Positions 16,568 through 50,523 of a stretch of 64,000 nt of DNA are shown here, in pieces. Positions within the stretch are counted from its first letter, which is position 1. Each line of letters begins with the position of its first letter. Origin of the DNA: Chthoniobacterales bacterium (GTDB lineage: Bacteria; Verrucomicrobiota; Verrucomicrobiia; Chthoniobacterales; UBA6821). The notes under the pieces are model-generated. The model was not told the origin of the DNA. It made no database searches and saw only the letters and a program-made list of their open reading frames with translations. The position numbers and the translations under genes are program-made. The stretch is taken from contig JBMOFC010000007.1 of NCBI GenBank assembly GCA_049314455.1, forward strand, positions 631 through 64,630. Reading direction: 5' to 3'.

Positions 16568-18538
16568 ATGATTTCTTCCAAAGAAAAAATACTCACTATT
16601 GCTGAGGCAAACAGTCGTGAGCCACTCCCTGGGAGCACGCGTGTTTATCTTCCAGGAGAAAAATATTCTTTCTTGCGTGTGCCACTGCGTGAGGTGCAAT
16701 TAAGTCCTACGAAAAATTTTCAAGGCGTATTCGAGGAGAATAAGCCAGTACAGCTCTATGACTGTAGTGGCCCATGGGGCGATCCTGATTTTAAGGGAAA
16801 AGTTGAGGAAGGTCTTCCTGCGCTACGATCAGCCTGGATCGCCGATCGTCACGATATCGAGTCGTACGAAGGTCGACATTACCAGCCGCTCGATAATGGT
16901 TACTTAAGTGAAAAGCATGCGGCTTATGCGAGTCATGCAGAGCGTAATCGTCTTATGGAATTTCCAGGACTCAAAGCACAACAGCGCCAACCATTGAGGG
17001 CTTCTCAAGGTCATCCGGTCACACAGCTTTGGTATGCACGTCAGGGAATCATCACTCCGGAGATGGAATTCATTGCCATTCGTGAAAATCAAGGTCTTGA
17101 AGCGCATCAAGAGGCTTCGCATCATGCATGCAATGAATTAACACATCGTCACCCGGGATCGCAGGAAAATTCTAACTCGGAGTATACCCCCTCGATTTTT
17201 CGTCGTTTTCCACAGCGTATTCCAAAACGCATTACGCCAGAGTTTGTCCGAGAAGAAGTGGCTTCAGGGCGTGCTATTATTCCGGCTAATATCAATCATC
17301 CAGAGCTGGAGCCGATGATCATTGGGCGTAATTTTTTAGTGAAAATTAATGCTAATATTGGAAACAGTGCAGTGGCTTCTAGCATTGAAGAAGAGGTAGA
17401 AAAGATGCGCTGGGCTACCAAATGGGGAGCCGATACAGTGATGGATCTCTCTACAGGGAAAAATATTCATGCCACACGCGAGTGGATCTTGCGCAACTCT
17501 CCTGTGCCCATCGGGACCGTGCCGATCTATCAAGCGCTTGAAAAGGTGGGTGGTAAGGCCGAGGAGCTCACCTGGGAAATTTTCCGTGATACACTTTTGG
17601 AGCAAGCGGAGCAAGGGGTCGATTACTTTACGATTCATGCGGGAGTCCTGTTGCGTTTTATTCCCATGACGGCACAACGGATGACTGGCATTGTGAGTCG
17701 TGGTGGCTCCATCATGGCCAAATGGTGCTTAGCACATCACCGAGAAAATTTTCTCTACACGCATTGGGATGAAATTTGTGATCTGATGGCAGCCTATGAT
17801 GTCAGTTTTTCGATCGGAGATGGTCTTCGTCCTGGTTCGATTGCTGATGCCAATGATGAGGCGCAATTCGGAGAGCTTCAAGTTCAAGGCGAACTCACCA
17901 AAAGGGCTTGGGCAAAGGGTGTGCAGGTGATGAATGAAGGGCCGGGGCACGTCCCCATGCACATGATTGAAGAAAATATGGCCAAGCAACTCGAGTGGTG
18001 CCACGAAGCTCCCTTCTATACCCTTGGGCCGTTAACCACCGATGTCGCCCCTGGCTACGATCATATTACAAGCGGCATTGGGGCCGCCATGATTGGCTGG
18101 TATGGGTGTGCGATGCTTTGTTACGTCACTCCCAAAGAACACCTCGGTTTACCCAATAAAAAAGATGTGAAGGATGGAGTCATCACTTACAAAATTGCAG
18201 CACATGCTGCGGATCTTGCTAAGGGTCATCCGGGAGCGCAGTACCGCGACAATGCACTTTCCAAAGCCCGTTTTGAATTTCGTTGGGAAGATCAATTCAA
18301 CCTCAGTCTCGATCCCACGACAGCCCGTGCCTTTCATGATGAGACATTGCCACAAGAAGGAGCCAAGACTGCCCATTTTTGCTCGATGTGCGGCCCTCAC
18401 TTTTGTTCGATGAAAATTACAGAAGATGTTCGTAAGTATGCCGCCCAACAAAAACTCTCGGAAGAAGAAGCATTGAAGCAAGGAATGCGTGAGAAAGCCA
18501 AAGAGTTTGTGGAAACCGGGAGTGAAATTTACACCTGA
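16568..18538 (+). CDS. thiC: Phosphomethylpyrimidine synthase ThiC
   Basis: Full-length ThiC-like sequence ([11 protein letters not shown]..., [19 protein letters not shown]-terminal [11 protein letters not shown] Fe-S motif). Start is placed at ATG 16568 because the longer TTG-ORF (16469) runs through the upstream terminator. Confidence 0.95.
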
Positions 18539-18765
18539 AAGAAATTCACAGCGATGAAACAACAAAGAATTTAACAGAGATGGAAGGGATAAAAGGGATA
18601 AAAAAATGATAGAAATACAAAGCACGCATCTCGTTTTTAAAATTTCAACGCTAGCAGCAAATTTGAAAATCGATGTTTTAAATCTTTCAGTCATCCCTTT
18701 TATCCCTTCCATCCCTGTTCAATCTTATGAGTTTTTAATTTTTTATCTCTGTGAATTCTTTCTTC
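18538..18765 (+). repeat. Junction inverted repeat thiC -> next gene (purine-rich arm, 93-nt spacer, pyrimidine-rich arm)
   Basis: The inner arms are perfect 21-mers: GATGGAAGGGATAAAAGGGAT (18579-18599) and ATCCCTTTTATCCCTTCCATC (18693-18713). The outer arms AGAAATTCACAGCGAT and ATCTCTGTGAATTCT are near-complementary. The left arm starts at the thiC stop, and the right arm contains the GTG start of 18751. Confidence 0.8.
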
Positions 18766-19758
18766 CAAAAACTCACCGATTTTCTTGAGGAAGAAGTAGC
18801 GCCACGTGCTCATCGTCTCGATGAAGAGGAAGTTATCTTTCGTGAAGTTTATGATCGTTTTGTAAAGCTCGGTGGTCTCTATCTTCTGATTCCAAGAGAT
18901 CTTGGAGGTCTTGGTGGTGAGCGACGAGAGTGGATTGAGTACAATGTATTGATGGCTCAATATTCGGGAGCGCTGCTTTTTCTTCAAGCACAGCATCAGT
19001 TCTGCATCTCACGGCTTAAAAAATTATTGCCTCATGCTGGTGTTGAAGAACTATTCAGATTCCTATCCTCGAAAAATCAAGGGATTGGCTTGGCCTTGCA
19101 AAAAAACAAAAATCTTCTGCGTGTTGAAAAAACAGTAGAAGGATATCGCTTGTCGGGAACATTTCTTTGGGCCACAGGGCACGGTTTTTTTCCTAGGCTC
19201 TTGGTTTCCTTTGAACATGAGGAAACACTTTTTTACACATTGATTCCTTTTGGTGAAGCGGAAAAAGAAGGGGGATCGATCCGTCTCTCTTCGAAAATAG
19301 AAACTATTGTGTTTAACGCTGTGCCCAGTCATAGACTGATCCTGGATCGGTGGTTCATTACAAAGAATGATCTTCTGGCGATGCATCCTGTGTTGCCAAA
19401 GACTCCCGTCGAACATCCCTCCATCTATAATATGGCAGGCGTTTCAAAAGCATTGCTCCACCTCACTCTTCAAGGACAATACGGCTCTACTCCAGAGGTT
19501 CTTGAGAATCATGAGGTGTTACAAAAACGATGGAACGGCTATTATCAACAGATCTTAGAAGGAAGCCATGATCCTCTTATTATGCGTGTGACGGGACTGC
19601 GACTTGCTGAAGAATCTGCCTTGCTCGCACGATTTGCATGCGGGGCTGCGAGCATTTTAAAAGAGCATCCGATCAATAGACTGATTCGAGAAATCTGGCA
19701 ATACACTGTGGCGGGGTACTCGGAAGAGCAGCGTCAGGCTTATTTAAGAAACTTTTAA
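18751..19758 (+). CDS. Acyl-CoA dehydrogenase-like protein (divergent)
   Basis: 335 aa. The N-terminus EEVAPRAHRLDEEEVIFREVYDRFVKLGGLYLLIPRDLGGLG and the middle segment GYRLSGTFLWATG resemble the ACAD fold pattern. This is a weak, motif-level call with a GTG start. Confidence 0.4.
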   Translation: MNSFFQKLTDFLEEEVAPRAHRLDEEEVIFREVYDRFVKLGGLYLLIPRDLGGLGGERREWIEYNVLMAQYSGALLFLQAQHQFCISRLKKLLPHAGVEELFRFLSSKNQGIGLALQKNKNLLRVEKTVEGYRLSGTFLWATGHGFFPRLLVSFEHEETLFYTLIPFGEAEKEGGSIRLSSKIETIVFNAVPSHRLILDRWFITKNDLLAMHPVLPKTPVEHPSIYNMAGVSKALLHLTLQGQYGSTPEVLENHEVLQKRWNGYYQQILEGSHDPLIMRVTGLRLAEESALLARFACGAASILKEHPINRLIREIWQYTVAGYSEEQRQAYLRNF

Positions 19759-19842
19759 GCTTTTTCCGCTTATTCCGAGTAATGGTAAAAAAAAGAACGT
19801 TCCATTTGACAATGATTTTTTTTGTGTAATGTTCTACCCATC

Positions 19843-49255: not shown

Positions 49256-49538
49256 TGTAAAAAAGGTGTTAGAATGCGACGTTATTAACCATAATATCCC
49301 TCAAAAAGGAAGAAAAATTAATCGTAACAACTCAGGTATCTAAAAAAAGCAAGCTATCTCAAGTTCTTACGTTGTTATTATCGCCTATTTCTAGGTTTAG
49401 GGGATATTTTCCTTTAACTCCCTCAACAGCTGCATTAGCAGCGGCTCACCCCCTAAACAAGGAGTTTGGTAATAATTACTGACAAAGTTATCTTGTTTTC
49501 CTAAGGCCTCTTAAGTATCTACAATTAATCCTTCATTC

Positions 49539-50375
49539 ATGAATCAACCTCAGATCATTGGCATTGTTCTTGTTCGTAATGAAGAATGCTTTGTGGAGCA
49601 GGTCATCTGCAATATCTTCTCATTTTGTGATCGGTTGCTTCTTGTGGATCATGAATCTTCGGATGGAACATTAGCCATTTTACAACGCTTCCAACAAGAG
49701 CATCCTGAAAAAATAGCACTGCACCGCATTCATCATCCAAGAGAATCACACGAGCTTTTAAAACCGTTTGTGGGAACAAGAACATGGGTCTTTGGTGTTG
49801 ATGGAGATGAGCTCTACGATCCAGAACGGCTCATGCTTTTTCGAGAGAGGCTTTTATCTGGAGAGTTTGATCGCGAGTGGATGATCTTGGGCAATGTGTT
49901 GCATGTGGAGAAACTTGAGGGCGCAACGGCCGCTGGTTATTTGACTCCTCCAAGTCGTAGCATCACCAAACTCTATAATTTTGGAGCGATTGAATCTTGG
50001 GAGGGAGAAACACTAGAACGCCTCCATGGCGGCAACCCTGTGTTTCGTCCCGGATTTCATGAGCAAAAAAAAAGAAAGCTCTTTGAGGAAGAAGCCTGGG
50101 ATGCGGCTTCTTTGCGATGTCTTCATCTCTGTTTTATTCCACGTAGTCGTAACACCCTAACCAAAGTACGGAAAAATATTATGGAGACCTATTCCAGAGG
50201 TCTTGTAACCAGCATGAAAAATAAAATAAGGCTCCTAGCAAGGGACCTTTTAGGAGTATCGGAAGATTCCTCCTGGAAAAATGAGCACTATGCACGGGGA
50301 GAACGGCATGTTAAAGATGCCACACCTTTTTTAAAAAATACTCGCAGGAATGGAAGGGATGAAAAAATGAAGTAA
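49539..50375 (+). CDS. Family 2 glycosyltransferase
   Basis: IIGIVLVRNEECFVEQVI...LLLVDHESSDGT is a GT-A N-terminus; the DxD-like motif is VDGDE. Confidence 0.7.
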   Translation: MNQPQIIGIVLVRNEECFVEQVICNIFSFCDRLLLVDHESSDGTLAILQRFQQEHPEKIALHRIHHPRESHELLKPFVGTRTWVFGVDGDELYDPERLMLFRERLLSGEFDREWMILGNVLHVEKLEGATAAGYLTPPSRSITKLYNFGAIESWEGETLERLHGGNPVFRPGFHEQKKRKLFEEEAWDAASLRCLHLCFIPRSRNTLTKVRKNIMETYSRGLVTSMKNKIRLLARDLLGVSEDSSWKNEHYARGERHVKDATPFLKNTRRNGRDEKMK

Positions 50376-50523
50376 AGAGTGAAGAGTAAAGGGGGAAGAG
50401 CAACTCATTCCGCAATTTATTCCATCAAGTTTTACTTTTAGAAAAAATCCCTGCTTAAAAAATATGGATTCCTAAAAATTGCTTGCTTTCACTAGCTACT
50501 CTTTACCCTTTACTCTTTACTTT
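50368..50523 (+). repeat. Junction inverted repeat GT2 -> next glycosyltransferase
   Basis: GAAGTAAAGAGTGAAGAGTAAAGGGGG (overlapping the stop at 50373-50375) pairs with CTACTCTTTACCCTTTACTCTTTACTTT (50496-50523). The arms are imperfect and the spacer is ~100 nt. Confidence 0.7.

Follow-up and report, generated by a model that had tools for sequence, protein, structure and literature searches.

Gene junctions of the 64,000-nucleotide stretch analyzed here (contig JBMOFC010000007.1 of assembly GCA_049314455.1, hereafter the window) carry inverted repeats (IRs), the arms of which are in most cases built from short reiterated oligomers and stand in one order, G-rich first and C-rich second. With confidence only slightly better than even, we interpret them as young hairpin repeats of fast turnover, locally generated and partly dispersed, whose orientation was filtered by G-poor leaders devoid of Shine-Dalgarno (SD) sequences and by stop codon content. 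The closest relatives of the encoded AsnB and LipB proteins come from metagenome-assembled genomes of the verrucomicrobial order Chthoniobacterales, and the host is an uncultured bacterium of soil or freshwater; G+C content of the window is 44%. The heptamers and this G+C content had at first pointed to a cyanobacterial source, which was rejected in view of the Chthoniobacterales relatives of AsnB and LipB. Pfam domains registered in the window proteins, namely ThiC, an acyl-CoA-dehydrogenase-like protein (gene designated acdh), AsnB, QueD/PTPS, RuvC, LipB, a 1193-aa ABC protein, an MBL-fold protein, nitroreductase and glycosyltransferases (GT), bore out the gene names given in the original prediction, an earlier reading of this DNA that had listed seven junctions with such IRs and ascribed them to a dedicated punctuation system.

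The window contains 13 IRs with a score of at least 14, while 30 composition-preserving block shuffles gave 0.10 +/- 0.30, which is an approximately 130-fold difference, and a chance origin was rejected on this ground. Scans at score 11 returned mostly noise and were left unused. In the window and in loci L001-L006 (loci used for comparison are given here by such numbers) density of IRs is about 20 per 100 kb, while in other phyla and other verrucomicrobial loci it is about 3-4. Among relatives it is high in L003, L004 and L172 and, for this class of repeats, low in L161, L164, L173 and L175; no IR was found in 19.7 kb of L161. The IRs and solo tracts of the window are listed below; fold z stands for the z-score of the predicted RNA fold relative to shuffles, on the assumption that the element is on one RNA.

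635-660 / 688-713, 3' of the stop codon of the secretin gene (this gene is on the minus strand): IR of GTTGAAG type, 27-nt spacer, 77% complementary.
8316-8348 / 8476-8492, minus strand: GTTGTCA / CTGACAA heptamer pair between two pseudopilin genes, fold z -4.8; G/T-rich past the stop codon, A/C-rich and G-poor in the leader of the next gene, without purine skew.
9062-9093, minus strand: solo (ATGGAAG)n tract upstream of the real start of a pseudopilin gene.
18543-18757, plus strand: thiC/acdh IR, fold z -7.8; core arms 18569-18615 / 18677-18723 of (GGGATAAAA)n, 47 nt at 81%, enclosing perfect complementary 21-mers (18579-18599 / 18693-18713); outer pair 18543-18551 / 18749-18757.
22677-22709, minus strand: solo GTTGAAG-type tract with a C-rich sense strand, 31-63 nt before the start of a Usp-domain gene.
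29465-29672, no strand assigned: divergent asnB/queD IR with (AGGCTGG)n arms 29465-29499 / 29638-29672; best arms 29470-29497 / 29645-29672 (28 nt, 96%); fold z -7.9 and -8.7 for the two strands; a start codon 7-9 nt 3' of each C-rich arm.
37301-37449, plus strand: IR upstream of a small lipoprotein gene, left arm of GGTTGAAG type, right arm (TTCAACCC)3.8, fold z -3.4; arms 37301-37324 / 37419-37442 (24 nt, 88%); in-frame ATG at 37409 directly 5' of the 3' arm.
38323-38428, plus strand: ruvC/lipB IR, arms 38323-38357 / 38394-38428 (35 nt, 94%), fold z -12.4; ruvC stop codon (38328-38330) within the 5' arm, ATG 38387 in the A-rich 36-nt loop.
41282-41322, plus strand: solo GTTGAAG-type tract in a convergent gap, 19 nt past the stop codon of gene 40697-41263.
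42245-42350, minus strand: weak IR of the ABC/MBL junction, (AGGCTGG/AGGCTAG)n at 42245-42280, degenerate partner at 42325-42350, z -2.3.
45985-46055, no strand assigned: divergent ABC/nitroreductase junction, short GAAGATGGAA arms, weak, 13-14 paired nt, z -3.3.
46731-46768 / 47408-47440, no strand assigned: distant pair of GTTGAAGTTGAAG(C/T)AGCAAAAAAG arms around a convergent gap that holds three other palindromic elements; nitroreductase stop TGA within the left arm.
50350-50549, plus strand: GT2/GT1 IR, (AGTAAAG/AGTGAAG)n inner arms, fold z -4.0; arms 50370-50391 / 50501-50522 (22 nt, 91%) extend to 56 nt (50350-50405 / 50494-50549); GT2 stop codon within the 5' arm, GTG 50544 at the end of the 3' arm.

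Locus-specific IRs are thus real at five of the seven junctions proposed (thiC/acdh, asnB/queD, lipoprotein, ruvC/lipB and GT2/GT1), while those of ABC/MBL and ABC/nitroreductase are weak. They occur at junctions of all gene orientations, and spacers of the confirmed IRs are 36-147 nt long (about 35-145 nt in the original prediction). Tandem Repeats Finder detected period 7 at positions 29472, 29645, 42250, 50371 and 50497, period 8 at 37420 and period 9 at 18584 and 18692, so that the description of arms as reiterated oligomers is valid for most of them but not for the ruvC/lipB arms, which have no reiterated unit. Arms sort into approximately five families, with at least five arm types in 64 kb and at most 2-4 loci per type. 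The thiC and GT2 elements have common termini CAGGGATGGAAG...ATGACTGAAA, the asnB/queD and ABC/MBL arms have GATAGGCTGGAGGCTGGAGGCT in common, and GGAGATAGAAGATGG is common to arms of the nitroreductase junction, the 9062 tract and IRs at the asnB junctions of L003 and L004. GTTGAAGTTGAAGCAGCAAAAAAG occurs at four sites, and arms of GTTGAAG type occur in no relative examined. Since arm families are shared, the orientation rule rests on about 5-6 independent cases rather than 10. Spacers are unrelated between loci: no direct-repeat family covers them and only a 12-nt motif is common. The statement that the arms are not copies of one miniature inverted-repeat transposable element (MITE) is supported.

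All seven left arms are indeed purine-rich (0.64-0.86), with a strong excess of G over C (G:C counts 10:1, 13:4, 8:1, 11:3 and 7:0), and the polarity noticed in the original prediction is real and non-trivial. Its stronger form, according to which no pyrimidine-first pair exists, is true for skewed reiterated arms of the window, but the non-reiterated palindrome 46841-46889 / 46945-46993 has a left arm with a purine share of 0.37, 5 G and 11 C. Comparison with shuffled controls had been suggested as a check, and the window scan placed the IRs far above chance. Several further IRs of the window are unskewed and MITE-like, and a pyrimidine-first heptamer IR (TCGTCCT x2) was found in another verrucomicrobial lineage (L102/L103). 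The polarity is better put as "G-rich, then C-rich", which is more general than "purine, then pyrimidine" and also covers the GTTGTCA pair 8316-8348 / 8476-8492. The expected overlap of arms with stop and start codons was seen, for instance, in ruvC and GT2, the stops of which are within the arm, but the divergent asnB/queD and ABC/nitroreductase junctions have a start codon on either side of the IR and no stop codon. Some overlaps with starts are artefacts of open reading frames (ORFs) extended through stop-free pyrimidine arms; N-methylation motifs of the pseudopilin ORFs lie at residues 42 and 80, the latter in the over-extended ORF at the 9062 tract. Of the arms considered solo, 41282-41322 and 22677-22709 are such, but the one at 673 belongs to the IR 635-660 / 688-713, and that at 47408 pairs at a distance with 46731-46768.

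Of 31-32 intergenic regions read on the top strand, 22-23 pass from purine/G-rich to pyrimidine/C-rich sequence (Wilcoxon p = 0.002 and 0.0004). Within 30 nt before start codons of the window G makes up 11% and C 23% (G-skew -0.34), and in leaders without arms the values are 12% and 21%, with negative skew in 17 genes and positive in 4. In every close relative, including those free of IRs, leader G-skew is from -0.20 to -0.33, while control phyla gave 0.00; leaders of the clade contain 11-15% of G versus 21-25% of C whether or not there is a repeat, and in the last ten positions G falls to 6-11%. Regions past stop codons are neutral (13 versus 10). Pentamers were counted in 40 nt upstream of 122 start codons from the window and 13 related loci. 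SD-like ones are rarer in the sense than in the antisense orientation (GGAGG, 3 versus 9; GAGGA, 1 versus 8), while the opposite was registered for CCTCC (9 versus 3), TCAAC and CTTCC (13 versus 1 each), and the favoured TCAAC and CTTCC are those composing pyrimidine arms. Verrucomicrobiales were reported to be globally without SD sequences (PMC10798248), and SD avoidance in this clade extends that report to Chthoniobacterales. Non-coding tandem tracts near starts have more C than G in eight cases and more G than C in none, while near stops the excess of G was found in seven and that of C in two. Judging by composition, the cause of the polarity probably sits on the start-codon side. Stop codons, as T-purine-purine triplets, are numerous in purine arms: about 60 versus about 19 in pyrimidine arms (both reading directions summed); two or three frames are usually closed by a purine arm, whereas pyrimidine arms mostly stay open. 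With G-poor leaders and stop-rich purine arms, insertion at a tight or overlapping junction would therefore be viable only in the purine-then-pyrimidine order.

How recent such insertions may be is seen from orthologous junctions. In relatives with 72-77% protein identity thiC/acdh and ruvC/lipB junctions are empty. The genes thiC and acdh overlap by 4 nt (ATGA) in L175 and are separated by a 19-nt gap in L173, and the alignment places an insertion of about 190 nt in the window exactly at the ancestral ATGA stop/start overlap; the ancestral ATGAGT persists at 18729, now followed by a stop codon. In L164 the TAA of ruvC overlaps the ATG of lipB (TAATG), and the ABC/MBL junction of L171 has no AGGCTGG arms. 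The region upstream of asnB was compared across 13 contigs. An IR orthologous to that of asnB/queD is present only in the closest relative, L172 (AsnB 87%), and the spacer in asnB/queD contains a conserved promoter-like motif. In L003 and L004 (67% to the window as well as to one another) the IR is built from another unit. L001 appears degenerate, a solo heptamer tract is present in L006, and L005, L173 and L174 have single-copy motifs, while neither IR nor motif was found upstream of asnB in L002, L175, L176 and L177. In L004 the gene 5' of asnB is another, co-directional one; its stop codon precedes the purine arm by 12 nt, and 4 nt separate the end of the pyrimidine arm from the ATG of asnB. 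T/G-rich reiterated tracts of another repeat type (TTCTTTGTG-type, period 9-10) occupy equivalent positions upstream of lipB in L167 (2215-2260) and of asnB in L006 (9905-9945).

Where arms can be compared, they changed together. The asnB/queD arms are (AGGCTGG)n / (CCAGCCT)n in the window and (AGGCTGC/AGGCTAC)n / (GCAGCCT/GTAGCCT)n in L172; between identical outer flanks (TAGCCTGTTTCCCCATG and CTAAAATTACTT) the units thus differ throughout, on one arm as on the other, by a G:C to C:G change. For covariation of arms in relatives, also named as a check in the earlier reading, this concerted change is a candidate case; the thiC/acdh, ruvC/lipB and ABC/MBL arms are absent from the relatives compared. 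The pyrimidine arm of asnB in the window starts with CCCCAGCCTCC, a motif that is single-copy in leaders of L173 and L005, and the asnB array therefore looks like a local expansion. The 3' arm of ruvC/lipB aligns to the 5' end of lipB from L171 at 28 of 39 positions, a score reached in none of 2000 shuffles, and is therefore a diverged duplicate of lipB codons 2-14. Duplication of the first ~14 codons spans 38387-38475, the 228-aa NCBI model starts in the upstream copy, in frame, and in homologues the conserved WLGR motif follows 7-15 residues after the start. The inverted copy of this duplicate overlaps the ruvC stop codon. Taken together, the lipB-derived arm, the asnB leader motif and the concerted change of units favour local genesis with arm-to-arm homogenization.

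Based on this data one can outline how such repeats may arise. Slippage in replication of 7-9-nt units would make arms grow, and the distal, G/purine-rich arm may be an inverted copy of the proximal one, produced by template switching or fold-back synthesis. Hairpin-templated correction would then keep arms complementary, while some arm types would also spread among loci. Close to start codons the repeat would be tolerated only in its C-rich form; the purine arm may quickly end the upstream frame, and the pyrimidine arm may be read as an N-terminal extension, as in lipB and possibly in the lipoprotein and MBL genes. RNA hairpins of co-transcribed pairs would be a by-product. Several circumstances weaken this scheme of locally generated, orientation-filtered repeats. 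The sample is small (64 kb of the window and about 250 kb from relatives), and gene starts were set by a crude ORF rule. Purine-then-pyrimidine order was also found at 2-3 convergent junctions (46731/47408; L099), which have no leader constraint, so that the elements themselves may be polar. Dispersal rather than a purely local origin is suggested by arm types that are met again, together with their non-repetitive flanks, at several loci and in other genomes. IRs recur 5' of asnB in four lineages with three units, hinting at function, and a compensatory change of two arms is also expected under selection for pairing.

The IRs might instead belong to several non-autonomous mobile palindromic families of MITE or REPIN type, moved by an enzyme encoded elsewhere in the genome, which we regard as a much less probable alternative. 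The purine-first order would then be inherited by the element or required by the enzyme (a hairpin with a purine-rich 5' strand), while bracketing of junctions would result from insertion where neighbouring genes are very close together. In line with such mobility are the order at convergent junctions, orthologous sites that are empty and cleanly bounded (~190 nt at the ATGA of thiC/acdh, for example) and arm families common to loci and genomes at non-orthologous sites, and the clade does have mobile palindromes, one of which, the 37138-37304 element, has a copy within the asnB/queD spacer of L172. But no transposase or integrase domain was found in any protein of the 64-kb window, which is one contig of the genome, no direct repeat that could be a target-site duplication brackets any element in the flanks inspected, and spacers have nothing in common. 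At least five arm types within 64 kb, together with the origin of the lipB arm from lipB itself and of the asnB arm from the orthologous leader motif, are also difficult to reconcile with mobile families.

It seems improbable that the IRs are selected as RNA structures. In such a case the stem would loop out the spacer, serving as a site of processing by RNase III or another enzyme or as protection of the upstream 3'-end; in other variants it would occlude or present the start codon, or join stop and start for coupling without SD. In support of the earlier reading, co-directional pairs are predicted to form a 20-35-bp RNA duplex if both arms are on one transcript. Selection would also agree with the high predicted stability of the stems, with z as low as -12.4, and with the joint change of the two arms that separates the window from L172. 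At thiC/acdh, GT2/GT1 and asnB of L004 only a few nt lie between the stem base and the stop and start codons, the ATG of lipB is in the A-rich loop, and in relatives the gene pairs overlap and are presumably coupled. On the other hand, relatives do not keep the IRs at these junctions; of the seven, two are weak and two are divergent, with arms that would be on separate RNAs and, in one case, the promoter-like motif in the spacer. A search of the whole window against Rfam at gathering thresholds had no matches, nor had region 37050-37500 at E<=1. Terminator-like and promoter sites showed no enrichment over shuffles: none of 15 terminator-like sites coincides with an arm pair, and the sole promoter match within an element is TTGACA-16-AAAAAT in ruvC/lipB. 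Processing of RNase III type would be possible for co-directional pairs and implausible at divergent ones, and is not favoured. Nor does a dedicated punctuation system agree with arms placed on different transcripts and with orthologous junctions that lack IRs, the more so that polarity is explained more simply.

A narrower version, to which we assign a slightly lower probability still, assumes that hairpins are kept by selection because the stem loops out an inserted spacer of 100-200 nt and joins stop and start at the helix base, or because the A-rich loop presents the start. If this is true, termination-reinitiation coupling is kept between genes that overlap in relatives, and the G:C to C:G change in two arms together with recurrence at asnB with three units is structural covariation; it would mean translation coupling based on structure, without SD. 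The concerted change of units and the recurrent asnB IRs are the parts most worth following. Least of all do we expect an action at the level of DNA, through cruciforms or G-quadruplex/i-motif structures of the arms modulating promoters in spacers: it is workable at divergent junctions, agrees with the conserved motif between asnB and queD and has a parallel in Xanthomonas arrays, which form G-quadruplexes in vitro (PMC4692102), but GTTGAAG, AGTAAAG and GAAGATA units have no run of at least three G, only GGGATAAAA contains GGG (in 2-3 copies), and conservation is lacking.

Besides the repeats discussed, the window and related loci contain palindromes of other kinds. A palindromic element of about 170 nt with conserved termini AACCTAAAAACGTGAAT (37138-37304) also occurs in L003 (10188-10356), L004 (8857-9022) and L172 (1991-2165). 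It is MITE-like, has no Rfam match and folds with z -5.3. Its consideration as a conserved small RNA was rejected in favour of a mobile palindrome, since its context differs in every genome and in L172 it lies inside the IR. The convergent gap between nitroreductase and P-II genes (46750-47446) harbours nested or adjacent palindromes 46841-46993, 46998-47098 and 47129-47375 between GTTGAAG arms and appears to be a hotspot for repeat insertion. The last of them, about 250 nt long, is MITE-like and has terminal inverted repeats of 25 nt (TAGAGTATTTTAAAAAATTCTGTAG); it holds a hairpin ACGTCATCCCCGCGRAGGCGGGGATCG, which has seven copies in the window, and partial copies of the element were found at 55099-55177, 59792-59877, 15658-15727 and 30112-30161. 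Another palindromic family, with TATACCTTT..GGATGAATTTTAGGA termini, is common to the clade and is represented by 27156-27320 in the window, 4078-4260 in L172 and 7487-7649, 13931-14094 and 19697-19862 in L175. A dispersed repeat (C)TAGCCCGGATATTTCATAC(TGATC), similar to repetitive extragenic palindromic (REP) sequences, is present at 6221-6301 and 33486-33509 / 33666-33746, in both orientations and often paired, with many copies in L005, L001, L169/L170, L173/L174 and L177. The imperfect palindrome CAACGGAACGTT is found in intergenic DNA beside IRs, exactly at 29549-29560 and 45957-45968 and in a related form at 37455-37467; it has 11 matches at no more than two mismatches, where 4.1 are expected, and may be a small repeat or an operator.

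Three pseudopilin genes of the minus strand have a common 58-nt 5' module (7255-7312, 8289-8346, 9498-9555), in which a G-poor (CTGACAA)n tract precedes a hairpin GCCATTGC...GCAATGGC; the start codon appears to lie within this hairpin. In L004 three copies of GAAAAGGGGTCAGTCCC, two direct and one inverted, lie at 3316-3397 in frame within a 702-aa ORF (2052-4160), which is a palindromic repeat tolerated inside a coding region; its kinship with the ruvC/lipB arms was considered and dropped, as this is a different repeat. Intrinsic terminators were rejected as an identity of the IRs because they need a 3-8-nt loop and a U-tract, while loops here are 36-147 nt. Integron attC sites were rejected as well, because the order is opposite to RYYYAAC...GTTRRRY, the last base of GTTGAAG does not fit, housekeeping genes flank the IRs and no integrase is encoded in the window. 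A tandem array of four or five paralogous sulfotransferase-like genes occupies 30168-34757, with DNA segments 60-84% identical, and a comparable array adjoins queD in L172 and a fumarase gene in L164. The window has no tRNA genes, and for its kinase-like protein no relatives were found among the genome contigs searched.

In general, these data suggest that a genome-wide habit of translation, with SD-free and G-poor leaders, can fix the orientation of surviving repeats, and the resulting pattern looks designed. They provide clean examples of insertion at overlapping stop and start codons, of an arm recruited as N-terminal codons and of arms changing in step. For annotation they serve as a warning, since start codons called beside such repeats are unreliable.

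Correia/nemis elements of Neisseria and enterobacterial repetitive intergenic consensus (ERIC) sequences are co-transcribed intergenic palindromes with long hairpins, cut by RNase III or RNase E and able to supply promoters, and they are the closest analogue of what the original prediction proposed. Unlike them, as single conserved MITE families with target-site duplications, the repeats described here show neither a conserved family nor duplication. Like MITEs in general they have terminal inverted repeats and are missing from orthologous sites of relatives, but they show no target-site duplication or common internal sequence. Inverted duplication by template switching, or correction of quasipalindromes, is reportedly described by Ripley in 1982 and by Dutra and Lovett in 2006, and tandem-inversion duplications are said to have been studied by Kugelberg and colleagues in 2010. 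Such switching would make an inverted copy and keep arms complementary without selection, which fits the lipB arm and the change in L172, but it is known at single loci and not as the source of a genome-wide class of junction repeats.

REPINs are REP doublets that form hairpins (Bertels & Rainey 2011, PMC3116915). Our elements resemble them in that two inverted repeats around a spacer form a hairpin of about 100 nt, as well as in intergenic position, in existing both solo and paired, and in turnover in the genome. REPIN arms follow one consensus or a few, repeated tens to hundreds of times over the genome, and are tied to a gene of REP-associated tyrosine transposase (RAYT), whereas arms here are reiterated oligomers specific to a locus or a small family, and no RAYT gene was seen in the window. 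The short tandemly repeated repetitive (STRR) heptamers of heterocystous cyanobacteria, said to have been described by Mazel and colleagues in 1990, are likewise intergenic, with several units per genome of low or moderate G+C content, and we know of no polarity rule described for them. Unlike the present repeats, the cyanobacterial arrays are mostly unpaired; heptanucleotide repeats of Calothrix and few inverted pairs in Nostoc are mentioned by Rehm et al. (PMC4692102).

The assertion that no system of this form had been described is too strong, since (GGGAATC)n pairs of Xanthomonas precede it. X. campestris and X. axonopodis have 70-75 such intergenic pairs per genome in "convergent orientation" (Rehm et al. 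2015, PMC4692102), at a mean distance of 28 nt from the upstream ORF and with length and sequence varying between related species (PMC4692102). We read this orientation as G-rich and then C-rich. These pairs are the closest precedent: arms are likewise tandem, with units of about 7 nt, paired convergently and intergenic. Paired inverted short-unit repeats, so far a feature of Xanthomonas, are thus extended to an uncultured verrucomicrobial lineage with many units. Unlike Xanthomonas with its one genome-wide quadruplex-forming unit, there are at least five units here, mostly without G-tracts; arms reach into stop and start codons, and the SD-avoiding host gives a specific reason for their polarity.

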